64,000 nt of DNA from Dehalococcoidia bacterium (GCA_040902505.1 JBBDXE010000025.1:16221-80220); one strand, 5' to 3'; positions 1 through 64,000 are shown, counted from the first letter of the stretch. Notes: a model not told the origin generated them from the sequence alone. A program made the numbers and translations.

Positions 1-98
1 GCCGCGGCCTCCTCCACCCCCTCGCCAACCTCAACGGCGGCCTCGACGCCTGGCGCTCCGCCTCCCTCCCCGTGACCCTCCCGGGCGAGGATCGCTGA
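1..98 (+). CDS. rhodanese-domain protein, 3' end (partial; gene starts upstream of window)
   Basis: The frame beginning at position 3 reads ...HPLANLNGGLDAWRSASLPVTLPGEDR then TGA at 96-98. NLxGG(L/I)xAW is the typical rhodanese-domain C-terminus. Confidence 0.5.
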   Translation, partial: RGLLHPLANLNGGLDAWRSASLPVTLPGEDR

Positions 99-269
99 CC
101 GCCGCCCCCCTTTCTGGCGGCATGCTCCGCGACCCGCCCGTCGCGAGGCAGCGCCGCGGGATCGCCGGACGGCGCAACAACGTCGAAACACCTTGCCCCT
201 CGCCTCGAGCCTTCTGTCGATCTACAATCGCCTGCCCGATAGGACGCGACTACCGCGAAGGAGACGCAC

Positions 270-1328
270 ATGACCACGCAGCAGATCGACGAAGCCAAAC
301 TGATGGAGTTCGTGGGGCAGGCCGTGAGCGACATGGGCGCGGTGCTGCTCGGAAACCTCGTGGCCATCGGCGACAAGCTGGGGCTGTACCGCGGCCTCGC
401 CGGGGCCGCGCCGATGACCCCCGGCGAGCTGGCGCAGAAGACCGGCACCGCCGAGCGCTACATCCGCGAGTGGCTCAACGCGCAGTCGGCCGGCGGGTAC
501 GTCACCTACACCGGCGACGGACGCTACACCCTCTCGCCCGAGCAGACCGAGGCCCTCACGAACGAAGAGAGCCCCGCCTTCGTGCTGGGCGGCTTCCAGG
601 GCATGACCGCCGCGACGATGGCCCGCCCCCGCCTCATCGAGGCGTTCAAGAGCGGCAAGGGCGTGGGATGGGACGAGCACGACCCGGACCTGTTCCAGGG
701 CACCGAGCGCTTCTTCCGCCCCGGCTACGCCGCCAACCTCGTCGCCGCGTGGCTCCCCGCGCTCGACGGCGTCGTGCCGAAGCTCGAGGCCGGTGCGTCC
801 GTCGCCGACGTCGGCTGCGGCCACGGCGCCTCGACGATCATCATGGCCCGCGCCTACCCGAAGTCGAAGTTCACCGGCTTCGACTACCACGCTCCGTCGA
901 TCGAGGCGGCGCGCAAGGCGGCGAAGGACGCCGGGGTGACGAACTGCGACTTCCAGGTCGCCTCCGCGAAGGACTACCCCGGCTCGTACGACCTCGTCTG
1001 CCACTTCGACTGCCTGCACGACATGGGCGATCCCGCCGGCGCCGCCGCCTACACGCTGAAGTCGCTCAAGCCCGGTGGCACCTGGATGCTCGTCGAGCCC
1101 TTCGCGAACGACGATGTCGCGGACAACCTGAACCTCGTCGGGAAGGTCTTCTACTCCGCGTCGACGTTCATCTGCACGCCGGCGTCGCTGGCGCAGGAAG
1201 TGGGGACGGCGCTGGGCGCGCAGGCGGGCGAGAAGCGCCTCGGCGAAGTCGCGCGGCAGGCCGGCTTCACCCGCTTCCGCCGCGCCGCCGAGACCCCCTT
1301 CAACCTCATCCTCGAAGCCCGCGCCTGA
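270..1328 (+). CDS. class I SAM-dependent methyltransferase
   Basis: 352-aa ORF with the Gly-rich SAM motif I VADVGCGHGAS, an acidic loop FDYHAPSIEAARKAA, the post-II motif LKPGGTWML and a DCLHDMGDP motif. Clean ATG start. High-GC codon usage with third-position G/C. Confidence 0.8.
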   Translation: MTTQQIDEAKLMEFVGQAVSDMGAVLLGNLVAIGDKLGLYRGLAGAAPMTPGELAQKTGTAERYIREWLNAQSAGGYVTYTGDGRYTLSPEQTEALTNEESPAFVLGGFQGMTAATMARPRLIEAFKSGKGVGWDEHDPDLFQGTERFFRPGYAANLVAAWLPALDGVVPKLEAGASVADVGCGHGASTIIMARAYPKSKFTGFDYHAPSIEAARKAAKDAGVTNCDFQVASAKDYPGSYDLVCHFDCLHDMGDPAGAAAYTLKSLKPGGTWMLVEPFANDDVADNLNLVGKVFYSASTFICTPASLAQEVGTALGAQAGEKRLGEVARQAGFTRFRRAAETPFNLILEARA

Positions 1329-1381
1329 GGGCGAAGACGCCGCTCACTCCCCCCCGCCGCCCGCGCGGGGGAGGCACTGCG

Positions 1382-1515
1382 ACGATCGTTCACTGCGGCC
1401 ACGGCGAGTGGGCAGCCACAGCCGTCTCGCTGCTGAAGCGCCACGGCCTGCACCCCCTCACCAACCTCAAGGGCCCCGACGCCAGGCGCTCCGGCCGCCC
1501 GCCCCCTCGCCCTCT
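1382..1515 (+). pseudogene. rhodanese-domain 3' fragment (duplicated remnant)
   Basis: Reads TIVHCGHGEWAATAVSLLKRHGLHPLTNLKGPDARRS with no start codon. At nucleotide level it is about 85% similar to the rhodanese 3' end at 15-60. Confidence 0.45.
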
Positions 1516-1590
1516 TTACCCCCAGCAACAGCCGCCGTGGCCGGACGAGGTAGCCAGCCCACGATGCCCATAGTCGAGCCGAGGTTGAAC

Positions 1591-2499
1591 CTACGTGCCC
1601 AGTGGCAAAACCCGAACCCGGCCTGCATCCAAGTCAAGCTCGACGCGGCCACCGCCCTGAGCGTTGATGTCGTTCCAAGCCCTGAAGCCCTGCATTATCG
1701 CGTCTTCCCACTCGCCGGCTGTTCGGCGACTCACTTCTAGGTGATCCGTCATCGTCTTGACCGTACGCAATAGCTCGTAGTCAAGCCGAATCAAGCCGCG
1801 AAGGAAGTCTCGCCGCTCCGCATAGCTGAACACCAAGGCAGTGATGCCTTCCTCGATGACGATTGCACGACCACCATCTTCCACCTCGTCAACTGTTGGG
1901 TCGCTTCTGCGCTTCCGGTCAAGAAACTTTCGTGTTAGCGGCGACCAGCCCAACACAGCGGCGTATGCCAGGTGCAGAACATCGTGGAATCGATACCCGT
2001 CTTCCACGTGACGATTGTCCGTGAGCGGATCTCCAAAGGGGGCACCATCGACGGTTGTCCTCGTGCGTGCCTCGCCACTTTCCGCGGCAAAGAACTCAGC
2101 GACCATTCGCCTAGAAAGCCGCTCGGTTGAGGGGAAACCCTCATCCAGCGATTGACGCGGGATCGGCAACTTCATCTGGTCGTGGCCTACTTGTTCCCAG
2201 CGCGCGCGACACTTCTGCAGATTGCCCTCTGCGACATCGGATAGGCGGAGCCCGAGTTTGGATGTCGAGCACGCGAGATACCAGAGGAGGTCGCCGAGTT
2301 CCTCGCGTGCCCTATCACGGAAGAGGAGGTACGCCTCACCGTCCCTCACATATTTCTTGTACTCGCTCAGGATCTCGCCCACCTCTCCAGCGAGCCCTAA
2401 GAGTGGAATCACGACGGCTGCAGCTGACTTCTCATCGCCTAGCGTCTTAGACACTTGATCCGTGTCAAGAGCCCTTGCCTGATACTCGTCTATGTCCAT
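1591..2499 (-). CDS. MazG-like all-alpha NTP pyrophosphohydrolase domain protein with uncharacterised C-terminal domain
   Basis: N-terminal region contains LGLAGEVGEILSEYKK...EELGDLLWYLA...NLQKCRARW, i.e. the EExxE/ELGDLL metal-binding helices of MazG/HisE-type pyrophosphatases. C-terminal ~170 aa unrecognised. Lies in the AT-richer island. Confidence 0.7.
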   Translation of the reverse strand: MDIDEYQARALDTDQVSKTLGDEKSAAAVVIPLLGLAGEVGEILSEYKKYVRDGEAYLLFRDRAREELGDLLWYLACSTSKLGLRLSDVAEGNLQKCRARWEQVGHDQMKLPIPRQSLDEGFPSTERLSRRMVAEFFAAESGEARTRTTVDGAPFGDPLTDNRHVEDGYRFHDVLHLAYAAVLGWSPLTRKFLDRKRRSDPTVDEVEDGGRAIVIEEGITALVFSYAERRDFLRGLIRLDYELLRTVKTMTDHLEVSRRTAGEWEDAIMQGFRAWNDINAQGGGRVELDLDAGRVRVLPLGT

Positions 2500-2603
2500 G
2501 GCCTACCTCCAGGTGGGACCGCGCATCCCCCTAGCTGCTACTGGAACTGCCGTGCATGTAGGCGCCAGCTTGCCAACGCCCGATCAAGGCGTAAACTGGC
2601 CAC

Positions 2604-3275
2604 GTGCAGTTCGAGCGCCGCGTGCTCTCGTTTGTCAGCTCCCTTACGGAAGCCGACTTGCCATCGCACTTCACGAATCCCTACAAGACCGGCCACACTG
2701 CTCGGAACCTCCTGCTCTTTCTCACACGGCGGGATCGTCTTGCTTGGACGCTCTTGGCGATCGGCGAGGCCCCTGGCTACCGCGGCGCAGTGATGTCAGG
2801 CGTCCCTCTCAGTTCTCTCGCAACGCTTGCGGATCCATGGGGCGATCCTTGGGAGTCGTTCGGTCCGTCCAAAGGGTATAGCTTCCCGCCGAACCCGTTG
2901 TACTGGCGAGAAGCAACGGCCACGATCATATGGGAATCCTTCGCGATGCACCTTGCCGACTCACCCCTTCCACTCACATGGAACGCCGTGCCATTTCATC
3001 CGCAGAAAAACGGCCGCGCTTCGAACGCGTCGCTGCGCGCAAATCAATTGCACATTGGCCAACCGTGGATCGAGCGGCTTCTCGAGCTCTTCCCAAACGT
3101 CTTCCCTGTTGCAGTTGGCCGGCGTGCCTGCGAAACGCTATGCCAGCTGAAGGTCGACCATGAGGCAATTCGCCATCCGTCACGAGGCGGGAAGCAAGAG
3201 TTCAGCATGGGACTCGCTCGTGTTCGCTCTCTGATGTCACCTCCTCCTGCAACGAGCTCGCTAACGGTCGCATGA
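2604..3275 (+). CDS. uracil-DNA glycosylase superfamily protein (family 4/5-like)
   Basis: Motif A AIGEAPGYRG (GE[AG]PG) about 55 aa from the N-terminus and motif B EAIRHPSRGG (HPS) near the C-terminus, with spacing as in the UDG fold. Confidence 0.65.
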   Translation: MQFERRVLSFVSSLTEADLPSHFTNPYKTGHTARNLLLFLTRRDRLAWTLLAIGEAPGYRGAVMSGVPLSSLATLADPWGDPWESFGPSKGYSFPPNPLYWREATATIIWESFAMHLADSPLPLTWNAVPFHPQKNGRASNASLRANQLHIGQPWIERLLELFPNVFPVAVGRRACETLCQLKVDHEAIRHPSRGGKQEFSMGLARVRSLMSPPPATSSLTVA

Positions 3276-3972
3276 CGCCGATCCTCCCGAGGCGCGCATC
3301 CGTGCTCACGACAACCAGCCCGCCGCAAGTGAGCCTGGACTCCGCCGCCACAAGTTGCTGCAATCGTGCTAAGCCAACGAAGTTACCATACGCTTTTTCA
3401 TGATAGTAATGGGAACGGTAGACAGCGGTCACAACCAGCTCGTCGGCATCGCGATGAAACTGAACTTCTGAGAGGCATGGGAACCCAACTCGTGCGATGG
3501 CCGTCCGTCCGGGGCGTTCAAGCACGATGGGCCCTGGATCTGCCCATTTGCCACCGTCTGGTGTTCGATGGTTGAGCGCATCGATCACATCCCTAATCTG
3601 ATTGACGTTGGTGCCGTCCCCTTCATAGTCCACCATGCGCCGAAAATACGAGTTGGTTGGCAACTTGGGTAAGAGACGGAAGCCGACTCGCTCCCAATCG
3701 ACTGCTCGTGCCACAGTTAGTGGCAAGATCGTGCGGGCGACGACCCTAACGCGATCTGTGGCAGCCGCGCCCAATGCAGCATCCAGACGGCGAGCAAACG
3801 CGGAGCAGTCAGCCTGCGGCTCGGCGATCGACACAACCAAATTACGGATCCGGTGACCCGGTTGTCTCAACAGCGCGAGCACCGCTGCTCTCCACGCATC
3901 CTCCAACGTGCGGGCATCGACCAGAACCGCACCCCTCACGGCACGGCTCCCGCGTCGGGAAGTACGCGACAA
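3202..3972 (-). CDS. divergent thymidylate synthase / dCMP hydroxymethylase-fold protein
   Basis: By-eye alignment to ThyA: VGFRLLPKLPT matches DGFPLVTTKR, TNVNQI matches TNIAYL, GFPCLSEVQF matches LPPCHALFQF (catalytic Cys), VYRSH matches LYQRSC, AYGNFVGLARL matches GLPFNIASYALL, CGGLVVVSTDARL matches VGDFVWTGGDTHL. An alternative GTG start at 3939 overlaps the upstream stop by 4 nt (GTGA). Confidence 0.65.
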   Translation of the reverse strand: MSRTSRRGSRAVRGAVLVDARTLEDAWRAAVLALLRQPGHRIRNLVVSIAEPQADCSAFARRLDAALGAAATDRVRVVARTILPLTVARAVDWERVGFRLLPKLPTNSYFRRMVDYEGDGTNVNQIRDVIDALNHRTPDGGKWADPGPIVLERPGRTAIARVGFPCLSEVQFHRDADELVVTAVYRSHYYHEKAYGNFVGLARLQQLVAAESRLTCGGLVVVSTDARLGRIGVMRPLASSLQEEVTSESEHERVPC

Positions 3973-4976
3973 TCACTCATTAGCTGCGGGGCCTTGGCCG
4001 CGAGCCGACGCGCCACGCTCTCGGTCACCGCTCTGAACACAGGCGCTCCCGCCGCCATGTTGTCGTCCCTCTTGGGCGGCCCAATTCTGCGCAGCACTCT
4101 GGCCTCTGCAGCTCCCAGCAACCTCAATGCCCGCAGCCGGCTGATCGTGGCGGCGTGACTGACCCCGAACCTAGATCCAAGCTCGTGAATCCGGTCCAGA
4201 TTCAGAGCCCGGTGGCCGAGGCACTCGCGCACTGCCCTCTGCGGTAGCAGGAACGCCGCCGCGAACACGTCCGCGCGCAACTCGATCCTCTGGCGGGGTC
4301 CCGGCCTTGGCAATTCGGCGGCAGCGCACGCGTATCCGCCGCCCTCGCGATCCAACAAGAAATGCGCTAATTCGTGGGCTAGTGTGAACCGCTGTCTTAC
4401 CGGTGGGTGGTTACTGTTGACAAGCACCGCACTCGATGCGCTGTCTGTAACCACTATGCACCCGGAAATCGACGAACTGACCGGAAGTCGGGCAAGCACC
4501 ACTCCCACGCCTGCCTCCTGAACGAATCCTGACAGTGGAATCACCGGATCCTCTGCTGACAACCCCGTTGCACCACGGAACCAACGTGCGGCCAGTTCGC
4601 CGGCTTGTACTGGAGGAAGCCGGGACACCCGTGGGGGAATAGATAGAGGCATCCAATGCGGATCTGATCCTAGCGCGGACTGAACGGCCGAGAACCAAGC
4701 AAGTTGCGGTTCGTCGTCCGCATGTATGGTTACGCCTCTTAGCCTCATTTTAGGTAGAACTGGACGGCCTCCCTCCCGCGGCGTCAGAAGCAGGTCTGGG
4801 GTTACAGCCAGCAGCGCCGCTAGCCTCACCAACTCCGCAGCCGTGACTGGTCTCGTACCCCGCTCCATACGGCTAACGACCGTCCGGTCGAGGCCTAAGG
4901 CTCTCGCTAGGTCAGACTGGTTCCAACCCCGGCGATAGCGCGCCTGCTGGATATTCCATCCAATTTGTGTGTCCAC
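3936..4976 (-). CDS. fused HTH-XRE DNA-binding / ImmA-IrrE (DUF955) metallopeptidase-domain regulator
   Basis: N-terminal QQARYRRGWNQSDLARALGLDRTVVSRMERGTRPVTAAELVRLAALL is a Cro/C1-type HTH. C-terminal AHELAHFLLD (HExxH) plus RADVFAAAFLLP is typical of ImmA/IrrE. A Pro/Arg-rich linker lies between the two domains. Confidence 0.75.
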   Translation of the reverse strand: MDTQIGWNIQQARYRRGWNQSDLARALGLDRTVVSRMERGTRPVTAAELVRLAALLAVTPDLLLTPREGGRPVLPKMRLRGVTIHADDEPQLAWFSAVQSALGSDPHWMPLSIPPRVSRLPPVQAGELAARWFRGATGLSAEDPVIPLSGFVQEAGVGVVLARLPVSSSISGCIVVTDSASSAVLVNSNHPPVRQRFTLAHELAHFLLDREGGGYACAAAELPRPGPRQRIELRADVFAAAFLLPQRAVRECLGHRALNLDRIHELGSRFGVSHAATISRLRALRLLGAAEARVLRRIGPPKRDDNMAAGAPVFRAVTESVARRLAAKAPQLMSDCRVLPDAGAVP

Positions 4977-5245
4977 GGACGCAGACTAGACGACGGCGCA
5001 CGAGTCATGCAATAGATCTCTCGATAGTGTGCTAGATCAGCACATCACGCGGGACGCGATTCTCTTGAAACTGCCATCCGCCCATCCTTGACCCCTTACA
5101 CCCCCCGCCGCTACCCTTCCCCCACGATGAACCTCCACCGCATGGCGATGCCTCTGCCCCGGGAGAGCCGGGGCGCCCGTCTGGGATAGCGCCAGCATCC
5201 CCCGGCCACCCCCTGCGGCGGCCGGAGCCACGGAGGTCACACGCC

Positions 5246-6493
5246 ATGCCGTTCGCCCAGTCCCTGCGTTGCCGCGAGTGCAACCGTGAGTATCCCCTCG
5301 AGCCCCTGCACGTCTGCGAGTTCTGCTTCGGCCCCCTCGAAGTCGCCTACGACTACACCGCGATGCACCGCACCGTCACCCGCGAGTCCATCGAGCGCGG
5401 GCCCAACTCCGTCTGGCGCTACGCAGACCTCCTCCCCGCCGACCCCGCTCAGGCCGTCGACATCAACGCCGGCTTCACCCCCCTCGTCCGCGCCCGCAAC
5501 CTGGGCGAGCACCTGGGCCTGCGCAACCTCTGGCTCAAGAACGACTGCGCCAACCCCACCTGGTCCTTCAAGGACCGCGTCGTCACCGTCGCCGCGACGA
5601 AGGCCCGCGAGTTCGGCTTCGACACCCTCGCCTGCGCCTCCACCGGCAACCTCGCGAACAGCGTCTCCGCCCACGCCGCCGCCGCCGGCCTGAAATCGAT
5701 CGTCTTCATCCCCCACGACCTCGAGCGCGGCAAGATCCTCGGCTCCAGCGTCTACGGCGCCACCCTCGTCGCCGTCGACGGCAACTACGACGACGTCAAC
5801 CGCCTCTGCTCCGAGCTGGCCGACAGCTACCCGTGGGCGTTCGTCAACATCAACATGCGGCCGTACTACGCCGAGGGCAGCAAGACCCTCGGCTACGAGG
5901 TCGCCGAACAGCTCGGCTGGCGCGCCCCGGAGCACGTCGTCGTGCCGATGGCGTCGGGCTCGCTGTACGTGAAGATCTGGAAGGGGCTGCAGGAGCTGGC
6001 CCGCCTCTGGCTCATCGACAGCGTGCAGACGAAGATGTCCGGCGCCCAGGCCCGCGGCTGCTCCCCCATCGTCACCGCCTACGAGGCCGGCACCACCAAC
6101 GTCCGCCCCGTCCGGCCCGACACCATCGCCAAGTCGCTGGCCATCGGCAACCCCGCCGACGGCTACTACGCCCTCAAGGTCATGCAGGAGTCCGGCGGCT
6201 ACGGCGTCGCCGCCTCCGACGACGAGATCATCGACGGGATCAAGCTCCTCGCCGAGTCCGAGGGCATCTTCGCCGAGACCGCCGGCGGCGTCGTCACCGC
6301 CTGCCTGAAGAAGCTCGCCCAGGCCGGACGCATCGCCCCCGACGAGGTCACCGTCGCCTACATCACCGGCTCCGGCCTGAAGACGCAGGAGGCCGTCGAG
6401 GACCACGTCGCCCAGCCCGTCCACATCGCCCCCACCATCGCGTCGTTCGAGGAGCTGGTGCGCCCCCGCGAGCGCGAGCTGGCGGCATCATGA
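5246..6493 (+). CDS. threonine synthase family PLP enzyme (ThrC/MetM-like) with N-terminal Cys4 zinc ribbon
   Basis: CRECNREYPLEPLHVCEFC zinc ribbon. PLP lysine region NPTWSFKDR, Gly-rich loop ASTGNLANS and an ITGSGLK C-terminal motif are typical of ThrC-family fold-type II enzymes. Confidence 0.85.
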   Translation: MPFAQSLRCRECNREYPLEPLHVCEFCFGPLEVAYDYTAMHRTVTRESIERGPNSVWRYADLLPADPAQAVDINAGFTPLVRARNLGEHLGLRNLWLKNDCANPTWSFKDRVVTVAATKAREFGFDTLACASTGNLANSVSAHAAAAGLKSIVFIPHDLERGKILGSSVYGATLVAVDGNYDDVNRLCSELADSYPWAFVNINMRPYYAEGSKTLGYEVAEQLGWRAPEHVVVPMASGSLYVKIWKGLQELARLWLIDSVQTKMSGAQARGCSPIVTAYEAGTTNVRPVRPDTIAKSLAIGNPADGYYALKVMQESGGYGVAASDDEIIDGIKLLAESEGIFAETAGGVVTACLKKLAQAGRIAPDEVTVAYITGSGLKTQEAVEDHVAQPVHIAPTIASFEELVRPRERELAAS

Positions 6494-6691
6494 AGCCGCA
6501 CCCCACCATCGCTCACCCCTCCCACCACCCCTTCCCTTCAGGGAAGGGGCTGGGGTTAGGTCCGGGGCGGAGCGGGGCCGTAGCAATCCCTGACGTCGGC
6601 GGCGTCTGTGGTTCCCCAACTCCCACGGCCCCCGTACACTGCGACCTGCACGCCCGCGCGCCCCGCGCGCACACCCACGAGCGAGGCCCAC

Positions 6692-6934
6692 ATGGCACGC
6701 CAGCGCGTTAAGTTCACCTTCCCGCAAGAACTCATCACCCTGCCCCTCATCTACGAGCTGGGCAAGAACTTCACCCTCGTCACCAACATCCGCCGCGCCG
6801 ACGTCACCGAGGACCGCGGCTGGATCGTCCTCGAGGTCGAGGGCGACCTGACGGAGATCGAGCGGGCGCTGGACTGGGTCTCGGCGAAGGGCGTCCGCGT
6901 CGACCCCGTCCCCGGCGACATCGTCGAAGGCTAA
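6692..6934 (+). CDS. NIL-domain small protein
   Basis: 81 aa: MARQRVKFTFPQELITLPLIYELGKNFTLVTNIRRADVTEDRGWIVLEVEGDLTEIERALDWVSAKGVRVDPV. Ferredoxin-like NIL domain pattern, as at the MetN C-terminus. Confidence 0.6.
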   Translation: MARQRVKFTFPQELITLPLIYELGKNFTLVTNIRRADVTEDRGWIVLEVEGDLTEIERALDWVSAKGVRVDPVPGDIVEG

Positions 6935-7030
6935 CGAGCGGTCAGCCATCAGCCAGTCAGCAGTCAGCAGCGACCGATGAGCAGCCACCACGGACCAGCA
7001 ACCGGCGACCAGTAACCAGGACACCAGACC

Positions 7031-7312
7031 ATGGCCCAGATCCGCATCCCGGCACCGCTCCGCAAGCTCACGAACGACATCGAGATCGTGCAGGCGGAGG
7101 CCGCCACCCTCGCCGAGGCCATCGACCGCCTCGAGGGCGACTTCCCCGGCATGAAGGAGCGCCTCTGCGACGAGACCGGCCAGCTCCGCCGCTTCGTCAA
7201 CGTGTACGTCAACGGCGAAGACGTCCGCTTCCTCGACAACCTCGGCACGCCGCTGAAGCCCGGCGACGAGGTGAGCATCGTCCCCGCCGTCGCGGGCGGG
7301 TCCGGGGCGTAG
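7031..7312 (+). CDS. MoaD/ThiS/CysO-family sulfur-carrier protein (GG followed by SGA extension)
   Basis: 93-aa beta-grasp pattern FVNVYVNGEDV...LKPGDEVSIVPAVAGGSGA. The Gly-Gly is followed by three extra residues. Confidence 0.7.
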   Translation: MAQIRIPAPLRKLTNDIEIVQAEAATLAEAIDRLEGDFPGMKERLCDETGQLRRFVNVYVNGEDVRFLDNLGTPLKPGDEVSIVPAVAGGSGA

Positions 7313-7469
7313 CGCCGGCCCGGTCAGCGCGCCAGCCGTCGTCAGGCGGTCAGCCCCCGCGTCCCCCGTGGCGAGGGGGCTCTTGATTGGCCAATTGCAT
7401 TCGGCGAAAATCCGGGCCTTTCGGGGGTCTGCGGATTCGGGGCGGGGGGCGTTTGGCTTGATTGGGTTA

Positions 7470-7870
7470 GCGCGCATGGGCGTCGACCTCACCCCCGGCC
7501 TTCGGCCTGGCCTCGCCGAGGCGAGTCTGCGACCTCTCCACACGATGGAGAGGGAGGAGTGGTGGAGGGCGTTCATTGGGGGCCTCCGCGGTCGAGGGAC
7601 TGGAGGTGGCGGAGGATGGTGTTGCGGAGGCGCATCTTGCGGGCGACGTCGAGGGGCGGGGCGCGGCGAACCTCACCCCCGGCCTTCGGCCTGGCCCTCT
7701 CCACATCGTGGAGAGGGAGGAGGGGAGCGGGGCTTTCGTCGAGCGCACCGCCGGCCGGGGGCCCACACCCGATTTCGGCGTCGAGGGACTGGAGGTGGAG
7801 GTAGATGGCGTTGCGGAGGCGCTCTTTGCGGACGGGGTCGAGGGGCGGGCGGCGGCGGGGGGCACGGCGG
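7470..7870. repeat. tandem direct repeat, about 190-bp unit x ~2 copies with internal hairpins
   Basis: Unit acctcacccccggccttcggcctggcc...ctctccaca[ct][cg][ag]tggagagggaggag...tcgagggactggaggtgg.ggaggatggtgttgcggaggcgc.tcttgcgg at about 7476-7665 and 7666-7860. ggccttcggcc and ctctcca/tggagag are hairpin-forming. Spans the 3' end of CDS 7573-8232 and continues beyond its stop. Confidence 0.6.
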
Positions 7871-8232
7871 AGGGGCCGACCGGTGAGGGCGTCGCGGTTG
7901 GAGGCGTGCTCGTAGTCCGCGACGGAATTCTGGTGGCGGTTGGCGGCGTCGTCGCGGGCGGCGTCGTCGAGGGCGGTGGTGATGCGGCGGCGGAAGTTGA
8001 GGGCGACGGGGCGCTCGCCGAGGATGCGGAGGGCGTCGATGACGGTCTCGCGGATGCGGCCGTCGCGGAGGGCGTTGCGGCGGCCGAGGCCGAGGAGGAC
8101 GCTGCGGGCGACGGGGTCCTGCATGAGGGCGTAGATGACGGCGCGGACGCGGGGGGAGTAGCGGCCGGACTTGAGGCCGTTGAGGTTGCCTTTGGGGGCG
8201 CCGGCGCCGGGGCGGGATCCTCCGTGGGGCAT
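7573..8232 (-). CDS. hypothetical protein, paralog A (conserved N-terminus GAGAPKGNLNxLKSGRYSPRVRAV; C-terminus encoded by tandem repeats)
   Basis: N-terminal ~110 aa are homologous to the ORF at 11915-12421; the 5' ends are also similar at the DNA level. The C-terminal half reads through the 190-bp tandem repeat (PLLPLHDVERARPKAGGEV repeated), so the true stop is uncertain. Confidence 0.45.
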   Translation of the reverse strand: MPHGGSRPGAGAPKGNLNGLKSGRYSPRVRAVIYALMQDPVARSVLLGLGRRNALRDGRIRETVIDALRILGERPVALNFRRRITTALDDAARDDAANRHQNSVADYEHASNRDALTGRPLRRAPRRRPPLDPVRKERLRNAIYLHLQSLDAEIGCGPPAGGALDESPAPLLPLHDVERARPKAGGEVRRAPPLDVARKMRLRNTILRHLQSLDRGGPQ

Positions 8233-8237
8233 CGCGA

Positions 8238-8333
8238 GTCTCGCAGTCTGTCAGTCTGCCGGTCTGTCAGTCGGTCAGTCGGTCAGTCGGTCAGTCTGTC
8301 GGGCGGTCAGGCGGTCAGGCGGTCAGGCGGTCA
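8238..8333. repeat. octamer microsatellite (GGTCAG[TG]C)n, about 11 copies, immediately 5' of the start of CDS 7573-8232
   Basis: tctgtcagtctgccggtctgtcagtcggtcagtcggtcagtcggtcagtctgtcgggcggtcaggcggtcaggcggtcaggcggtca. Confidence 0.7.
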
Positions 8334-8571
8334 TAGTGTGGCGGTGTGGCGGGGGAACTCGAAGCGGTGGGTGACACTGGCGGCCGTGAGCGGTGAGCCG
8401 TGAGCCGTGAGCGGCGGGGGCGGGCGCGCGGGTGTGGCGCCTGGGCCCCGCCCCGGACGCAGCTGAAGCCTACGTCCCTACGAGATCCGGCCCGGTCCGG
8501 GAGCCAGCCCTCACCGGCCTCCGCCTACGTCCGACATCCGACTTCCAGCCGCCCTGCCGTATCATCCCGCC

Positions 8572-44343: not shown

Positions 44344-44502
44344 CTGTCGCGCCTGGCTCCACACCACTGGCAGGGCGCCTTTTGCCGCGCCACCCCCGCC
44401 CACCTTACTCCCTGCCCCTTCCCTGGAAGGAGGAAGGGGGACTCCGCTACGTTGCACGGAACGTAAGCCGGGCGATTGTCGCCGGATCGCGTGCCGCATA
44501 GG

Positions 44503-45411
44503 ATGGCGGCGATGACGTCCTGTGTGCTGGTCCACAATCCAGTGTCCCGTGCGTCGATGCGGCGGGAGCAGATCAACGACGTGATAGCGATCGCGCGGAT
44601 CGCGGGCTGGCGCGTCACGCCACGGACGACGGATGCCGCGGGGCACGCGACGGCGCTCGCCCGGGAGGCGGCGGAGCATGAGGTGGACGTGCTGCTGGTG
44701 AACGGCGGCGACGGCACGGTCAACGAGGTGGTGAACGGGCTGGCGGGGACGCGGACGGCGCTGGCGGTGCTGCCGGGGGGGACGGCGAACGTCTGGGCGA
44801 AGGAGATCGGGTTGAGCCGGAAGCCGATGCACGCGCTGCGGGCGGCGCTGGACGGGGAGCGGAGGAGCGTCGACCTGGGGCGGGCGGGGGAGCGCTACTT
44901 CCTGCTGATGGCGGGCGTGGGGCTCGACGCGGAGATCGTGCCGCGCGTGGGGTCCCGGCTGAAGCGGCGGGCAGGCGCGCTGGCGTACATCACCGCGGGG
45001 GCAGGGCCGGCGCTGCGGGGGAAGAGTCACGCCACGCGGATGACGATCGATGGGGCGGCGAAGGAGACGGGGCTGCACTGGATGATCGTCGGGAACACGC
45101 GGTCGTACGGGGGGCTGGTGCGGATCACGCATCGCGCGACGGTTACGGACGGGCGGCTGGACATGGCGCTGATGCACCGGGGGGGGATCCGGCGGCTGAT
45201 CGTCGACGGGGTGCGGGTGCTGCGGGGGCGTCACGAGCGTTCGCTGAATGTGACGTATGTGCAGGCGGCGTCGATCGACGTGGAGACGGCGGGGATCCCG
45301 GTACAGGTTGACGGCGAAGCGCACGGGGTGACGCCGATGCGCTTCGAGGCGGTGCCGGGGGCGCTGGAGGTGATCGTGCCGGTGGGACTGCGGAGTCCAT
45401 TGTTTGGGTAG
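44503..45411 (+). CDS. diacylglycerol-kinase-family lipid kinase (YegS/DagK-like)
   Basis: VDVLLVNGGDGTVNEVVNGL...LAVLPGGTANVWA...MAGVGLDAEIV, the DAGK_cat signature. The start could be 44476, 44503 or 44512. Confidence 0.8.
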   Translation: MAAMTSCVLVHNPVSRASMRREQINDVIAIARIAGWRVTPRTTDAAGHATALAREAAEHEVDVLLVNGGDGTVNEVVNGLAGTRTALAVLPGGTANVWAKEIGLSRKPMHALRAALDGERRSVDLGRAGERYFLLMAGVGLDAEIVPRVGSRLKRRAGALAYITAGAGPALRGKSHATRMTIDGAAKETGLHWMIVGNTRSYGGLVRITHRATVTDGRLDMALMHRGGIRRLIVDGVRVLRGRHERSLNVTYVQAASIDVETAGIPVQVDGEAHGVTPMRFEAVPGALEVIVPVGLRSPLFG

Positions 45412-45550
45412 CGGTCGGTCGGTCAGTCAGCGGGTCGTGTAGGGGCGCTGCTTGCCGCGCCGGTGTATGCGCGTGCCGGAGATCCGTGCAGGCGGATCAG
45501 ATCCTTCGCTTCGCTCAGGATGACAATTCGACACTCAGGATGACAGTGCG
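45411..45550. repeat. dispersed intergenic element, copy A: (CGGTCAGTC)-rich head plus GGATCAGATCCTTCGCTTCGCTCAGGATGACA core, with duplicated CTCAGGATGACA
   Basis: gcggtcggtcggtcagtcagcgggtcg...ggatcagatccttcgcttcgctcaggatgacaattcgacactcaggatgaca. Starts at the stop codon of the 44503-45411 CDS. Confidence 0.6.
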
Positions 45551-45633
45551 GCGGCGGCCACAAGATGCACGACGGCTCCGCGTGTGGCGGAGCCGTCGAG
45601 GGGATCACGCTGCCTGATTCGCTTGGACTCGGG

Positions 45634-45795
45634 CTAGCCCTGCGGTTGCGGGACGTAGCTGGAGCCGAACTCGTCGTCGTCCTTGCTCCGGAAGAACTTC
45701 AAGGCGCCATATGCAGCCGCCGCGAAGCCCAGGAGCACCACGATCTTCTTCAATCCCGTCACCTCCTTGACGATGCCGTGCGTGGGGTGAGACAT
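45634..45795 (-). CDS. small membrane protein (about 40-53 aa)
   Basis: Strong Shine-Dalgarno sequence AAGGAGGTGA placed 6 nt before TTG-AAG-AAG (LKKIVVLLGFAAAAYGALKFFRSKDDDEFGSSYVPQPQG). An upstream in-frame ATG (MSHPTHG...) is also possible. One TM helix. Confidence 0.3.
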   Translation of the reverse strand: MSHPTHGIVKEVTGLKKIVVLLGFAAAAYGALKFFRSKDDDEFGSSYVPQPQG

Positions 45796-46022
45796 CCCTA
45801 CTGTACCGCGATGCACCTCGGGCCGCCACGGCGGGTTATCCCTCGCAACGGTTCTGTAATGCACCGATCGGGCAGGGTGATCCCCTTATGATCATCTAAG
45901 ACTCTCCGCGACGACATCTCGTCCGCCATGTCGGTGACTGCGGAGCCGGTCTCGCCCAAGAACTCGTCAGCGCGACCGAATACCGCGTAGCCGCCGGGCG
46001 GGGGGCGGCGTACCATCACAGT

Positions 46023-47315
46023 ATGACGGACTACGTGACGCTCCCGGAGCAGCGGGTGCCGGTTGTCGCGGCGTGCGACGTGCTGGTGGTGGGCGGGGGG
46101 TCGGCGGGGATGGCGGCGGCGATCGCGGCGGCGCGGCAGGGCGCCGACGTGATGCTGGTCGAGCGGTACGGGTACCTCGGGGGGCTGGCGTCGGGCGGGC
46201 TCATCGTGCTGCTGCTGACGCTCGACGACGGGGACGGGCGCCAGGTGGTGGCGGGGCTGTGCCAGGAGCTGGTGGAGCGCCTCGAAGCGCGCGGGGCATG
46301 CTTCTACCCTCCGCAGGGCGAGTGGGGGGACTACGACGAGGCGCTGGTCGAGCGGTACCGGCGCTGGGGGCTGGTGTGGGGCTCGGGGCCGCACCGGGTG
46401 CGCTATTCCGTGGCGTACGACCCGGAGGAGTTCAAGTTCGTCGCGAACACGTGGGTGGCGGAGGCGAAGGTGCGGCTGCTGTACCACCGCTGGGCGAGTG
46501 ACGTGGTGTTCGAGGTGGACCGCCCGCACGGGCGGCCGGCGGGGCGCGTTTCGCACGTAGTGTTCACGTCGAAGGCGGGGCGGCAGGCGGTGCGGGCGTC
46601 GTATGTGATCGATGCGACGGGGGACGGCGACGTCTTCACGATGGCGGGGGAGGCGGGGGAGAAGGAGCAGGTGCATCCGTGGCTGTGGTTCCGCATGGCG
46701 GGGGTGAAGGACGCCGACGGGGCGCAGGCGGGGCGGGCGGGGTCCTTCTTCCGGACGGTGAAGCCGGGGCAGGTGCTGCTGCCGTGGGGCGCGGCCGAAC
46801 GCATCGAGCGGCGGATCGACGCGACGGACCCGGACGACCTGACGTTCGCGGAGGTGGAGTGCCGGCGGATGGTGATGGATGAGGTGGACCGGCTGCGCGC
46901 GCAGGTGCCGGGCTTCGAGGAGGCGTACCTGACTGACGTGGCGCTGACGCTGGGGATCACGGAGTCGCGGCGGCTGCAGGGGGCGTATGTGCTGGCGCGG
47001 GAGGACGTGGGGCGGGTGTTCGAGGATACGATCGCGACGACGGGGCACTGGACGAAGTACGGGGCGCTGTATCACGTGCCGTATCGCAGCCTGCTGCCGA
47101 AGCGCGCGTCGAACCTGCTGATAGCGGGGCGGTGCATCAGCGTCGACCATCGGGTGCACCACGCGACGAAGGAGATCCCGCCATGCTTCGCGACGGGGGA
47201 GGCGGCGGGGATCGCGGCGACGCTGGCGCTGGGGGCGGGGGCGTCGGTGCAGGACGTGGAGGTGGGTGCGTTGCAGGGGGCGCTGCGGGCGGCGGGGGCG
47301 TGGTTACCGGCGTAG
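46023..47315 (+). CDS. FAD-dependent oxidoreductase (FAD_oxidored family)
   Basis: CDVLVVGGGSAGMAAAIAAARQGADVMLVER dinucleotide-binding motif, DATGDGDV, and a GRCISVDH C-terminal motif. Confidence 0.75.
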   Translation: MTDYVTLPEQRVPVVAACDVLVVGGGSAGMAAAIAAARQGADVMLVERYGYLGGLASGGLIVLLLTLDDGDGRQVVAGLCQELVERLEARGACFYPPQGEWGDYDEALVERYRRWGLVWGSGPHRVRYSVAYDPEEFKFVANTWVAEAKVRLLYHRWASDVVFEVDRPHGRPAGRVSHVVFTSKAGRQAVRASYVIDATGDGDVFTMAGEAGEKEQVHPWLWFRMAGVKDADGAQAGRAGSFFRTVKPGQVLLPWGAAERIERRIDATDPDDLTFAEVECRRMVMDEVDRLRAQVPGFEEAYLTDVALTLGITESRRLQGAYVLAREDVGRVFEDTIATTGHWTKYGALYHVPYRSLLPKRASNLLIAGRCISVDHRVHHATKEIPPCFATGEAAGIAATLALGAGASVQDVEVGALQGALRAAGAWLPA

Positions 47316-47412
47316 GCGGTCGGTCAGTCAGTCGGTCGGGTTGTGGTGGCGCGGCGGAGCGAGGGACTGTGCTGGTGGATCAGATCCTTCGCGTCGCTCA
47401 GGATGACATGTG
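47316..47412. repeat. dispersed intergenic element, copy B
   Basis: ggcggtcggtcagtcagtcggtcggg...ggatcagatccttcgcgtcgctcaggatgaca. Lies between convergent CDSs (FAD oxidoreductase stop and citrate synthase stop). Confidence 0.6.
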
Positions 47413-47414
47413 CG

Positions 47415-48542
47415 CTAGGCGCGCTCTTCGATGGGTTTGTAGCGGAGGTGGCGGGGGCCGGCGTATTCGAGGAGCGGGCGGATCAGGACGTTGTCGGCGT
47501 ACTGCTCCAACACGTGGGCGACCCAGCCGGGCATGCGGCCGACGGCGAACATGGGGATGAACTGCTCGTCCGGGATGCCGAGCAGGGAGTAGACGGCGCC
47601 GGCGTAGAAGTCGACGTTGGGGTAAATGCCCTTCACGCGGTAGGGCTCCATGGCCTTCTCGATCTGCTGGAGGATCTGGAACCAGCGGTCGTTGCCCTTC
47701 CGGTGCCCCAGCTCGCGGGCGACGCCGCGCAGCTCCCGGGCGCGCGGGTCCTCGGTTTTGTAGACGCGGTGGCCGAAGCCCATGACCTTCTCGCCGGCCT
47801 CGATGCGCTCCTGGATGTACTCGATGGCGCGGTCGGGGTCGCCGATGGCCTCGACGTGCTTCTGGACGGCCTCGGCGGCGCCGCCGTGGAACGGGCCCTT
47901 CAGCGTGGCGATGGCGGCGACGATGGCGGAGCCGATGTCAGCGCCGGTGCCGGCGGCCACGCGGGCGGCGAACGTCGACGCGTTGGAGCTGTGCTCGGCG
48001 TGGAGGACGAGATCGAGGTCGATGATCTGCGCGTCCTCGGGGTCGGGCTCGCGGCCGAACATCATGTAGAGGAAGTTGGCGGCGTGGCCGAGGTCGTCGC
48101 GGGGGGCGACGGGGTCGAGGCCGGCGCGGATGCGGTGCATGGCGGCGACGATGGTCGCGACCTGCGAGATCAAGCGGACGCCGGCGGGGGTCGCGACTTC
48201 GACGGAGGCCTCGAGCGACGCCTCATCGAGGGCGACGGTGGCGGAGAGGGCGGTGCGGAGGACGTCCATGGGGTGGGCGGCCTTCACGCGTTCGATGATC
48301 TCGAGGACGGGCTGGGGGACGGGGCGGCCGGCGCGGAGCTGCGCCTGGAAGGCGGCGAGCTGCTTTGCGTTGGGGAGGTGGCCGTGGATCAGAAGGTAGG
48401 AGACCTCCTCGAAGCTGGCCTTCTGGGCGAGGTCGTGGATGTTGTAGCCGCGGTAGACGAGCTTCCCGGCCTCGCCGTCGATGAAGGCGATGCGGGTCTC
48501 GTCAAGGACGACGCCCTTGAGTCCGGTTCCGGTGCTGCTCAC
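47415..48542 (-). CDS. citrate synthase (small, type-I/2-methylcitrate synthase-like)
   Basis: GLKGVVLDETRI..., GFGHRVYKTEDPRA (catalytic His), HAEHSSNASTF and GRMPGWVAH signatures. Confidence 0.9.
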   Translation of the reverse strand: MSSTGTGLKGVVLDETRIAFIDGEAGKLVYRGYNIHDLAQKASFEEVSYLLIHGHLPNAKQLAAFQAQLRAGRPVPQPVLEIIERVKAAHPMDVLRTALSATVALDEASLEASVEVATPAGVRLISQVATIVAAMHRIRAGLDPVAPRDDLGHAANFLYMMFGREPDPEDAQIIDLDLVLHAEHSSNASTFAARVAAGTGADIGSAIVAAIATLKGPFHGGAAEAVQKHVEAIGDPDRAIEYIQERIEAGEKVMGFGHRVYKTEDPRARELRGVARELGHRKGNDRWFQILQQIEKAMEPYRVKGIYPNVDFYAGAVYSLLGIPDEQFIPMFAVGRMPGWVAHVLEQYADNVLIRPLLEYAGPRHLRYKPIEERA

Positions 48543-48589
48543 AGTCCCGCCCCCTGTCGCTACGCGGCTGAGCGGCGCAGCTAGCCGCT

Positions 48590-48978
48590 GTTGACATATT
48601 CGGACGGTGAATCGGTGCGATAGACCGGGTGAATCCTAGCACAGCCGGAGCGGCGTGTTCGGGCAGAATCGGCGCCAGCGGTCACACTTCACACAAACGT
48701 AGTGTTCTGTACGGAGCCGTATTGCAAACACCCGGGCACACTGATACCATGCTGTTCGCGTGCCCGGGGGCGCGCGGAGAATAGAAGAAACCTGAACGTC
48801 TCGAAGGGGAGACAACCAGGGGCCTGGCTGGCAGTGTTCGCGAAGTGCGGGCCTGTCGGGGGCCTTTTGCGTTGTCAGGGCAATGGACGACTGTAAACGC
48901 ACCGGCTTCACTTAGGGCCCCGGCATCGCCCGGGCATTCTGCCTCGCCGGGCAGTGGCGAGGATGAAGGGATACGAGA
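48590..48978 (+). promoter_or_regulatory. long AT-richer structured 5' leader upstream of speH (candidate cis-regulatory RNA)
   Basis: About 390 nt with no convincing ORF. Hairpins cccgggcac...gtgcccggg and ctgcctcgccgggcag. GC content clearly below the window average. Confidence 0.3.
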
Positions 48979-49398
48979 ATGCACGTTACGATCGATGGGT
49001 TCGGCGGCAAGTCCACGCAGCTTGCCGATGTGGCACTGGTCCGCAACCTCCTCGACCGCTACCCGGGCGAAATCGGAATGACGAAGATCTCCGAACCCCA
49101 CGTGTTCGAGTACCGCGGCACGAAGCCTGAGGACTGGGGCGTCTCAGGGTTCGTCCTCATCGCCGAAAGCCACATCGCCGTCCACACGTTCCCGGAGCAC
49201 GGCCAGGTGTGGGTCGACATCTTCTCGTGCAAGGGGTTCGATGACACCCCGGCCATCGACCGCATCGTCGAGGCGTTCGGCCTGGAGCACACGCGGGTGA
49301 ACCGGCTGGAGCGCGGGCTGGAGTACCCGCACGACGTCGGAGCGAGCATCCCTCTGAACCGCCGGGAGCGCCGCGAGGTCACGCCGGTCTCGGCATGA
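48979..49398 (+). CDS. speH: S-adenosylmethionine decarboxylase proenzyme (class 1, pyruvoyl-dependent)
   Basis: FVLIAESHIAVHTFPE contains the ES-S self-cleavage site. Typical length (about 139 aa). Confidence 0.85.
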   Translation: MHVTIDGFGGKSTQLADVALVRNLLDRYPGEIGMTKISEPHVFEYRGTKPEDWGVSGFVLIAESHIAVHTFPEHGQVWVDIFSCKGFDDTPAIDRIVEAFGLEHTRVNRLERGLEYPHDVGASIPLNRRERREVTPVSA

Positions 49399-49471
49399 CG
49401 CTTTGGCTCGCGTCTGACCTCCGGCGTTCGTGGAGTGATGCTGCCCTGCCTGTATTGAGGGCATCGCGCCC

Positions 49472-49500
49472 CAGGATGCTTCGCTTCGCTCAGAATGACA
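49472..49500. repeat. dispersed intergenic element, partial copy C (core only)
   Basis: caggatgcttcgcttcgctcagaatgaca compared with the core ggatcagatccttcgcttcgctcaggatgaca. Confidence 0.45.
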
Positions 49501-49600
49501 TACGTACCTGTTGTCTCGCCCCTCGCCACTCCCTGCACCATACAATTGACCCGGAGAGCGGCCCCCTCTGAGGAGGTGCGGCCTCTGACGAGGTGCGGCC

Positions 49601-50311
49601 ATGCCCATCATCACCGTCTCCGGCACGCTTGGCAGCGGCGCGCGGGAGATCGCGCAGGCGGCGGCGCGGGAGCTGGGGCTGGACTACGTGGACCAGGAGA
49701 TCCTCGTGGAGGCGGCACGCCGGCTGGGCGTGAGCGTGGCTGACGTTGAGAGCCGTGACGAGCCGGCGACCGGCCTGGGCGAGCGGCTGGCGTCGATCAT
49801 GCGCACGCTGATGGAGCGCTCGGCGGTGGCGGGGGCGTCGGATCCGATGAGCGGCGGCGGGCTGGAGATGATCCTCGGGCGGACGTACGGGGAGGCGGCG
49901 GATCTGCCGTCGGAAGCGGAGCGCGGCCAGCCGGACGACGAGCGGTACCTCAAGACACTCACGTCGGTGATCCGGGGGATCGCGGCACGGGGGAAGGTGG
50001 TGATCCTGGGGCGGGGAAGCCAGGCGATCCTCCAACACGAGCCGGAGGCGCTGCACGTGTACGTCGGCGCGCCCACGGAGCAGCGCATCGCGACGTTGGT
50101 GCAGCAGGAAGGGATGGAGCCGCAGGACGCGGAACGGCGGCTGAAGCAGAGCGACCAGAACCGGCAGGCGTTCCACCGGCGCTACTTCAAGATCGACGCC
50201 GACACTCCAAAGCTCTACGACCTGATGCTGCGATCGGACCGCATCCAGCCGGACCTGGCGGTGAAGCTGATCGCGCTGGCGGTACGCGACCGGACGCCGA
50301 GGCCCGGGTGA
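49601..50311 (+). CDS. cytidylate-kinase-like family P-loop protein
   Basis: IITVSGTLGSGAREIAQ (Walker A variant GxxGSG). Family Cytidylate_kin2-like. Lid region VILGRGSQAIL. Confidence 0.7.
   Translation: MPIITVSGTLGSGAREIAQAAARELGLDYVDQEILVEAARRLGVSVADVESRDEPATGLGERLASIMRTLMERSAVAGASDPMSGGGLEMILGRTYGEAADLPSEAERGQPDDERYLKTLTSVIRGIAARGKVVILGRGSQAILQHEPEALHVYVGAPTEQRIATLVQQEGMEPQDAERRLKQSDQNRQAFHRRYFKIDADTPKLYDLMLRSDRIQPDLAVKLIALAVRDRTPRPG

Positions 50312-63956: not shown

Positions 63957-64000
<44 letters not shown>

Follow-up and report, generated by a model that had tools for sequence, protein, structure and literature searches.

A tagged tandem-G.A hairpin of probable CGTC-REP/SRM kind at gene 3' ends in a Dehalococcoidia bacterium

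Repetitive extragenic palindromes (REPs) that carry a CGTC tag have been grouped into the families CGTC-1 to -4, which include dRS3 of Neisseria and RPE-4/-6 of Rickettsia (Di Nocera, De Gregorio and Rocco 2013, BMC Genomics 14:522, PMC3733652). They consist of an unpaired CGTC tag, often TGTC and with CCTC allowed, a stem of 8-9 bp starting with A-T and T-A, a loop of 4-5 nt and a 3-nt unpaired tail with the consensus CCA. Mostly found as inverted dimers, few of them being tandem, they lie between unidirectional or convergent open reading frames (ORFs) and were reported from Proteobacteria, Chlorobi, Bacteroidetes, Spirochaetes and Thermotogae; no flanked tyrosine transposase was found for them (PMC3733652). 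Here we describe three copies of a short tagged hairpin, termed the module, in a stretch of 64,000 nt from the metagenome-assembled genome of a Dehalococcoidia bacterium, of the Chloroflexota (JBBDXE010000025.1:16221-80220; the whole stretch is called the window). The best reading of the sequence comparisons is that the module belongs to the CGTC/TGTC-tagged REP superfamily and is of one kind with the Ssn-related motifs (SRM), of which NTS/dRS3 of Neisseria is typical.

The Neisseria protein SsnA (Chenal et al. 2025, Nat Commun 16:2388, PMC11893778) has 94 aa and a single domain, GIY-YIG. It binds NTS (CGTCATTCCCGCGMAVGCGGGAATCYRG, which contains dRS3) only as single-stranded DNA (ssDNA), cuts a few nucleotides upstream and does not bind RNA. 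Cleavage of NTS is governed by the three bases 5' of the palindrome and binding by the C after the palindrome, and the ssnA gene is bracketed by NTS repeats. The search pattern published for SRM is HGTCWYN(0-2)YYVSBRHN(0-5)WNVSBRGN(0-2)RNCYNB (PMC11893778). By analogy with this pair, we consider it likely that the sites in the window are orphan copies, two intact and one decaying, of a tagged hairpin of the CGTC-REP/SRM kind, an Ssn-cognate ssDNA site located at gene 3' ends. The repeat is real, smaller and more ordinary than the first-pass annotation of this DNA had proposed, and of a known kind; what is notable about it is the tandem-G.A architecture, the position outside the published search motif and the very wide phylogenetic spread.

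The hairpin, its boundaries and its copies in the window

A 22-nt core, CTTCGC[T/G]TCGCTCAG[G/A]ATGACA, is present at three sites in the window, all on the plus strand (45504-45525, copy A; 47387-47408, copy B; 49479-49500, copy C), and gave no match in 100 dinucleotide shuffles. The core is exact in copy A, and copies B and C have one mismatch each. When a covariance model (R1) built from 89 module variants was run over the 64 kb, only the same three copies were found (48.5, 46.1 and 39.9 bits, respectively), the next match scoring 11 bits.

The minus strand shows the anatomy of the unit, TGTC-ATCCT-GA-GC-GAA-GC-GA-AGGAT-C. An unpaired (T/C)GTC tag precedes a 5-bp stem that starts with A-T and T-A, the stem encloses tandem G.A and a triloop closed by G-C pairs, and a conserved C follows. 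Two tandem G.A mismatches followed by two G-C pairs that close a GNA triloop form the centre, an arrangement of the d(GCGAAGC) mini-hairpin type. At sites anchored on the 22-mer only, where the 5' partner base was free, C stood opposite G in 102 of 104 cases and T opposite A in 96 of 97. A pattern that made no demand for complementarity matched 398 times in 1.49 Mb, 228 of the matches having 5/5 stems, and at least eight compensating stem types were seen in all, among them ATTCT/AGAAT, ATCCT/AGGAT, ACCCT/AGGGT, ATGCT/AGCAT, ATTCC/GGAAT, ATGTT/AACAT and GTCCT/AGGAC. A curated alignment, pre-selected for at least 4/5 pairing, showed changes on both sides at six of the seven pairs, with none of 500 shuffles reaching the observed values. 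Sites hardly vary in the GTC tag, the GA...GA mismatches or the G-C pairs; the tag reads TGTC in 220 of 250 relaxed matches, and the unpaired C directly 3' of the stem carries 1.7 bits at a position that was free in the search. GCGAAGC is by far the commonest loop variant, followed by GCGCAGC, GCGGAGC, GCGTAGC and GCGACGC. The hairpin is under selection, and its stem changes are compensatory.

The first-pass annotation had described a dispersed family of 100-130 bp elements with a (CGGTCAGTC)-rich head. The core of this family is real, as shown above, but the long unit is not. When 207 distinct sites from other genomes were aligned on the core, the information content was confined to (g)AGATY plus the 22-mer, about 27 nt, with 0 bits outside. 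Likewise, the 32-mer common to copies A and B (GGATCAGATCC plus the core) occurs in four unrelated metagenome contigs with flanks unlike those of the window. The real unit is therefore about 27-32 nt long and sharply bounded, since conservation stops at the module, the flanks of the 32-mer are unrelated and the head is an independent microsatellite.

This head is an (NGTC)n tetranucleotide array distinct from the core. The window contains three such arrays, all on the plus strand (8244-8333, 45413-45428 and 47318-47337), against 0.02 expected; the longest, of 90 nt at 8244-8333, has no core nearby. Two of the three begin 1-3 nt past TAG stop codons, and it is these microsatellites alone that abut stops: the cores, which had been placed directly after stop codons, lie 71-92 nt past the plus-strand stops. 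A relative locus, L190, has three arrays on the opposite strand (e.g., L190 5342-5421), and the arrays comprise tetranucleotide and octanucleotide microsatellites, with CAGTCGGT repeated 11 times as an example. No (NGTC)n array was found in 1.42 Mb of other module-bearing loci, and the microsatellite is a lineage-specific feature. The resemblance of its unit to xGTC tags in a row may be coincidental.

A composite miniature inverted-repeat transposable element (MITE) of 100-130 bp, made of head, spacer and core and specific to this genome, is accordingly hardly tenable and already largely refuted. Copies A and B do each have an (NGTC)n run just past a TAG stop with the core 60-80 nt beyond it. 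However, their head-to-core spacers differ by 18 nt in length and align poorly, the microsatellite stands alone at 8244-8333 and in L190, and the module is found in other contigs between unrelated flanks. Neither terminal inverted repeats nor target duplications were found at the flanks of A, B and C, so that the 'MITE-like' label for this short unit with its non-conserved spacer had to be dropped.

The longest (NGTC)n array also coincides with a switch in gene strand and with a flip of the GC skew at about 8000-8400, from -0.09 (1-8000) to values of +0.06 to +0.16 (8001-64000). This flip could be replication-related or purely a coding-strand effect. A replication origin at the skew switch at about 8 kb was considered and rejected, as Pfam analysis of the adjacent ORFs was unsupportive and returned only a GNAT acetyltransferase.

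Copy A is a full module (45494-45527, minus strand; R1 E-value 3.8e-11). It reads AT-TGTC-ATCCT-GA-GC-GAA-GC-GA-AGGAT-C-TGATCC on the minus strand, with 5/5 complementarity in the stem and both GTC tag and 3' C in place, and lies 83 nt past the stop of a DAGK-like gene (44476-45411, plus strand); this and the other flanking genes were identified by Pfam. A 5' half-copy, TGTCATCCTGAG, consisting of tag, 5' arm and GAG, is found 8 nt from copy A on its tag side (45534-45545, minus strand). The duplication that had been noticed at copy A, a second CTCAGGATGACA at the same position, was thus borne out. Copy B, also a full module (47377-47410, minus strand; E-value 1.7e-10), is located between the convergent genes for an FAD-oxidoreductase (46023-47315, plus strand) and a citrate synthase (47415-48542, minus strand), its tag being 6 nt from the stop codon of the latter; an exact look-up of the citrate synthase ORF, in the form called here, found no record of it. 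Copies A and B have 40 nt in common at 93% identity, GGATCAGATCC included, whereas copy C shares only the core with them. This third, degenerate copy (49471-49502, minus strand) lies between genes for an AdoMet-decarboxylase (48979-49398, plus strand) and a cytidylate-kinase-like protein (49601-50311, plus strand). Its tag, its GA-GCGAAGC-GA centre and its 3' C are all intact, but the third stem pair is broken (ATTCT versus AGCAT) and no fold is obtained under DNA parameters; copy C is therefore decaying.

The triloops are GAA in A, GAC in B and GAA in C, and the tails CTG in A and B and CCT in C, with CTC, CTG and CCC occurring family-wide. All window copies are singletons, not dimers. Copy A lies in a unidirectional or convergent gap, copy B in a convergent and copy C in a unidirectional one, and no module copy was found in the divergent gap at 48543-48978. 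The core had also been said to yield a spurious peptide, ILSEAKDL, in two ORFs. This is correct for the ORF at 45423-45608 (minus strand), which reads ...VILSEAKDL..., but the ORF at 49144-49626 (minus strand) uses another frame and reads CHSERSEAS. At the far end of the window, positions 63957-64000 are a terminal run of 44 G, in all likelihood a poly-G artefact of sequencing or assembly at a contig end.

Occurrence in other genomes, placement and half-copies

The first-pass annotation had made its case depend on further copies and on conservation of the core elsewhere, and both were found. The 22-mer is present in 60 IMG/VR contigs and, among the matches listed, in more than 120 GTDB genome stretches; the GTDB carriers in these matches are Acidobacteriota, Nitrospirota, Chloroflexota, Verrucomicrobiota, Bacteroidota, Bacillota, Gracilibacteria, Saccharimonadales, Planctomycetota, Gemmatimonadota, Eremiobacterota and Proteobacteria. 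Further carriers are plasmids or megaplasmids of Gloeothece, Planktothrix, Nostoc, Hymenobacter, Phocaeicola and Granulicella. The identical 22-mer is thus found in at least 12 phyla, bacteria of the candidate phyla radiation (CPR) and phage-like contigs included. A search of a cultured-phage database gave no match to the module.

Across loci, 85 of the gaps that hold a module are tandem, 30 convergent and 15 divergent, divergent gaps being under-used. The orientation relative to the upstream gene is near random, with 75 of 139 modules codirectional (about 200 sites, scored with a crude gene caller). Module dimers are mainly inverted with their tags outward (40 cases), while six have the tags inward and seven are tandem; at loci L022 and L052 the inverted doublets are able to form long hairpins. 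With its tagged palindromic hairpin, its location at intergenic junctions other than divergent ones and its genome-wide dispersal in many bacteria, the module agrees with the earlier description of the repeat as 'REP-like'.

Of 272 modules, 28 have half-copies such as that beside copy A on their tag side, and only one has them on the opposite side. The half-copy unit consists of the tag, the 5' arm, GAG and a spacer of 7-13 nt, and stands in tandem before the full module; the flanks of the GIY-YIG gene of Planktothrix (see below) carry arrays of two to three such units. We found no description of one-sided half-copies in the accessible parts of PMC11893778 and PMC3733652. They may be footprints of a hairpin copying process, and offer a testable clue to how the hairpin multiplies.

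The syntenic Dehalococcoidia relative L191 (83% protein identity) has three module copies, CGTCATCCTGAGCGAATGCGAAGGATCTCC, with the canonical CGTC tag and a 4-nt GAAT loop. They lie downstream of the same FAD-oxidoreductase gene as copy B, in the orientation opposite to the window copy, and neither L190 nor L191 has a module at the site orthologous to that of copy A. The copies were therefore gained independently. At L191 7400-7700, the three copies and their flanks (cgcataaCGTCATCCTGAGCGAATGCGAAGGATCTCCtggcgcgacaatc) recur with a period of about 108 nt; here, downstream of the FAD-oxidoreductase gene, a larger unit has been amplified in tandem. In L190, a pair of IS3-family transposase genes (HTH_Tnp_1, rve) and extra genes are found between the FAD-oxidoreductase and citrate synthase genes (L190 8177-9518); because of this insertion, the interval of copy B is a rearrangement-prone spot in the lineage. 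At another locus, L183 (Ga0316616_100628618), classical CGTC REPs of the CGTCATTCCCCGGCTTGACCGGGG type lie beside a tandem-G.A module in one intergenic cluster, so different members of the superfamily coexist.

The module could be primarily a target for recombination or integration, as dRS3 is for the Neisseria filamentous phage and REPs are for IS110-family insertion sequences, and not a nuclease substrate. dRS3 is described as a phage recombinase target (PMC11893778), and ISPpu9 is reported, in the accessible part of the source, to insert into REPs. However, no insertion sequence or prophage junction abuts the three copies or the sampled modules, which makes this role most improbable as the main one; it would in any case be secondary and compatible with a nuclease target.

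The location of all three copies downstream of genes is also what a transcribed hairpin in the 3' untranslated region (UTR), terminating transcription or protecting mRNA 3' ends, would lead one to expect. The under-use of divergent, promoter-type regions fits this explanation as well, and REPs in E. coli have been reported as 3'-UTR elements in the accessible part of the source. In addition, doublet-like module sequence resembles the Rfam family AaHKsRNA41, although below its gathering threshold. Nevertheless, we regard such an RNA role as unlikely. No T-tract follows the module, a terminator scan was empty at all three copies, and the folding energies are ordinary (-2.7 to -7.9 kcal/mol, z about 0) and no better than those of shuffled sequence. 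The lack of an orientation preference argues in the same direction, and a terminator would not need a loop, tag and tail that are invariant across phyla. At site A, moreover, a separate perfect 9-bp hairpin (45574-45596) is already present between the convergent genes. Finally, the Neisseria enzyme SsnA binds no RNA (PMC11893778). The suggestion that the repeat serves as a terminator module is therefore not supported.

Rfam searches of the window at the gathering threshold returned two tRNAs only, and a search of 45300-49700 at E<=10 nothing relevant. On module-rich loci, the sole match was the sub-threshold one to AaHKsRNA41 (RF02901, Aggregatibacter small RNA 41), given by the inverted module doublet at L022 3007-3132 (IMG/VR) with 50.9 bits against a gathering score of 97. 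The RF02901 consensus itself holds GCUGAGCUUGCCGAAGCAUC...GAUGGUUCGGCAAGCUCAGC, and the family may for this reason have been built on a REP/SRM-type doublet. Three other readings of the core were rejected: a hammerhead-like one (CUGA...GAA, GUC), by eye, as the CUGAnGA core and stem I are missing; a CsrA site in CAGGAUGA, as half of the family carries CAGAAUGA; and a promoter -35 element in ATGACA, as there is no conserved -10 downstream and no promoter-like site was detected. String searches of the literature for the DNA core and the spurious peptides retrieved no papers.

The 9-bp hairpin at site A, CGGCTCCGC-GTGTG-GCGGAGCCG, separates the DAGK-like gene from a small minus-strand ORF at about 45634-45753 (...KKIVVLLGFAAAAYGALKFFRSKDDDEF...), which is conserved as a 43-aa gene at the corresponding position in L190 and L191. 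This ORF is probably a genuine gene for a small membrane protein that has a terminator-like hairpin of its own.

GIY-YIG genes bracketed by the module

At other loci, the module brackets genes for small GIY-YIG proteins, namely at L052/L192, L069, L193, L194, L195, L196-201 and on the Planktothrix plasmid L203. A high-scoring module lies 12-55 nt upstream of the gene on its coding strand at L193, L194, L195 and L196-201, and at least one further module at or just past the GIY-YIG stop. L203, plasmid p1 of the cultured Planktothrix agardhii, has the annotated GIY-YIG gene WP_083616022.1 between modules. The only Pfam match of the bracketed proteins is GIY-YIG (PF01541), and in full-length BLASTP comparisons they are 48% (E 6e-28) and 40% (E 2e-20) identical to a 94-aa gonococcal GIY-YIG protein whose gene is surrounded by nine NTS repeats. 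The L052 protein belongs with its homologues to a large 'putative endonuclease' family.

This link was found through a targeted motif and jackhmmer search, which gave the loci L052 and L069, followed by fetching of homologues. An all-against-all BLAST of 2434 ORFs near 209 sites detected no enrichment of a specific neighbour family, and a two-sequence GIY-YIG alignment searched against viral contigs returned the query locus only. NCBIfam has no family for the bracketed proteins, and a sequence search of the PDB with them gave only a marginal match to the UPF0213 protein BH0048. The gonococcal gene served as positive control (L202, NZ_CP119140.1): in this 2.17-Mb Neisseria gonorrhoeae chromosome, which is filed in PLSDB as 'plasmid' and has scarcely any annotation, an ssnA-like gene and nine NTS lie within 2.7 kb. 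In L203 (NZ_LR882964.1 14847-23116), the GIY-YIG gene is located between an MmeI-type restriction-modification gene and the DISARM gene drmA, in a defence island, and sister plasmids have modules inside or beside MmeI/PglX genes.

For GTAG-tagged REPs, mobilization in trans is attributed to RAYT (REP-associated tyrosine transposase), an IS200-like Y1 HUH transposase, and the module might be a classical REP/REPIN of that sort. The tag and hairpin, the inverted doublets at L022 and L052 and the gene-end placement are in line with this possibility, as are the AAGCGAAGCG centres, which are also found in enterobacterial REPs (PMC2817692). We nevertheless judge it very unlikely. The module tag is (T/C)GTC and not GT[AG]G, and CGTC repeats lack a flanked tyrosine transposase according to PMC3733652. 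GIY-YIG is the only recurrent neighbour family around the 209 sites, where no transposase-like family recurs, and the bracketed gene encodes a GIY-YIG nuclease.

The module is the probable target of a small ssDNA-cutting enzyme of the Ssn family, to judge from the bracketed genes and their resemblance to ssnA. Binding, nicking and cassette behaviour are assigned here by homology with the tested SsnA/NTS pair of Neisseria (PMC11893778). On this model, the minus strand would become single-stranded during replication, transformation or repair, and the cognate Ssn nuclease would bind the hairpin through the GTC tag and the 3' C, the predicted single-stranded substrate being TGTCATCCTGAGCGAAGCGAAGGATCT. 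It would then nick a few nucleotides upstream of the tag. Nuclease gene and hairpins together would behave as a selfish or domesticated cassette, with hairpins accumulating where insertions are tolerated, at gene 3' ends.

A broader proposal, which we put forward tentatively and on balance doubt, is that the tandem-G.A hairpin and its own clade of Ssn-like GIY-YIG proteins form a single pan-bacterial selfish or domesticated system, in which the target has remained near-identical, the nuclease has diverged to about 48% identity and the half-copies are footprints of copying. Such a system would be among the most widely distributed REP-type families while lying outside the published SRM pattern, and the half-copies (tag, 5' arm and spacer) would reflect a cut upstream of the tag that is then mended by a templated or slipped repair process. 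To our knowledge, a cleavage-then-repair copying mechanism has not been described for REP-like elements.

Comparison with known elements

Several observations weigh against assigning the module to the CGTC-REP/SRM kind and to an Ssn nuclease. The published SRM pattern, which matched the NTS control, misses copies A, B and C as well as the CGTC variant of L191. The loops in the window have 3 nt instead of the 4-5 nt of CGTC REPs, although the L191 loop has 4 nt, and the module combines five Watson-Crick pairs, two G.A pairs and two further Watson-Crick pairs with a CTN/CCN tail where CGTC REPs have 8-9 paired bases. Neither the 64-kb window nor the 57 kb sampled from five related loci contains an ssn or GIY-YIG gene, and the putative cognate nuclease would be encoded elsewhere in the genome or have been lost. 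The bracketed loci are not fully independent, as L194, L195 and L196-201 have neighbour gene families in common, and all bracketed proteins except those of L069 and L203 belong to one clade with 75-93% identity. Moreover, predicted folding is weak, with -2.7 kcal/mol as DNA, -5.5 to -7.9 kcal/mol as RNA and z about 0. The module has precisely GCGAAGC, or a GCGNAGC variant of it, at its centre. Tandem G.A pairs stack well, and the heptamer d(GCGAAGC), studied by Hirao and co-workers, reportedly forms an unusually stable DNA mini-hairpin that contains a sheared G.A pair. The mini-hairpin is an observation of physical chemistry and not a genetic element, and its stability escapes the nearest-neighbour folding used here.

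Identifying the module allows the three intergenic sites, together with the spurious ORFs that run across them (VILSEAKDL or HSERSEAS peptides), to be labelled as REP/SRM hairpins, and not as terminators or a new mobile element. It also connects the CGTC-tagged REPs, 'orphans' that had no known enzyme in 2013, with the Ssn nucleases reported in 2025, and extends this connection to a hairpin variant that the published search motif misses and that is found in Chloroflexota as well as in many further phyla. Should the cognate enzyme cut as predicted, the two would be another ready-made pair of sequence-specific ssDNA nuclease and target.

With CGTC REPs, the module shares its position near gene 3' ends, a short unpaired tail and the absence of an attached transposase (PMC3733652). 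The tag is TGTC in A, B and C and CGTC in L191. The stem has nine stacked positions starting with A-T and T-A, of which positions 6 and 7 are G.A and A.G and not Watson-Crick; in the tail, the first C is common to the module and CCA, while the remainder differs. The prevalence of tags-outward dimers and the scarcity of divergent sites correspond to what is known for CGTC REPs, whose dimer peptides (SFLRKQES...LDSRFRGND) likewise imply outward tags. The peptides VIPAKAGI, SFPRKRES and LDSRFRGND of CGTC REPs are counterparts of VILSEAKDL, HPERSEGS and ILRFAQND of the module.

The likeness to SRM/NTS (PMC11893778) lies in an oriented hairpin of about 28 nt in which xGTC stands unpaired 5' of the palindrome, the stem begins with AT and a conserved C comes directly after the stem, in hundreds of intergenic copies, and in the module-gene-module bracket around a single-domain GIY-YIG gene of about 100 aa. 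All three window copies have GTC directly 5' and C directly 3' of the palindrome. The GIY-YIG gene bracketed on both sides is a feature of the module family at other loci, not in the window, and the homology of the bracketed proteins to Neisseria SsnA (94 aa, cd10448) is seen in a BLASTP identity of 40-48% to the gonococcal protein whose gene is flanked by NTS. In contrast to NTS, with its fully paired ATTCCCGC stem and 4-nt loop, the module has a stem broken by tandem G.A and a GNA triloop. Chloroflexota, Acidobacteriota, Nitrospirota, CPR, Bacillota and Cyanobacteriota, in which the module occurs, are not mentioned in the accessible part of PMC11893778.

GTAG REP/REPIN-RAYT systems resemble the module in their short tagged palindrome, an ssDNA hairpin recognized by a small nuclease-type protein, as would also be the case for the module, and in the single enzyme gene bracketed by repeats, the inverted doublets and the placement at gene ends. 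They differ in the tag, which is GT[AG]G, and in the enzyme, an HUH Y1 transposase as opposed to a GIY-YIG protein. REPs are usually lineage-specific, whereas the 22-mer of the module is identical across phyla.

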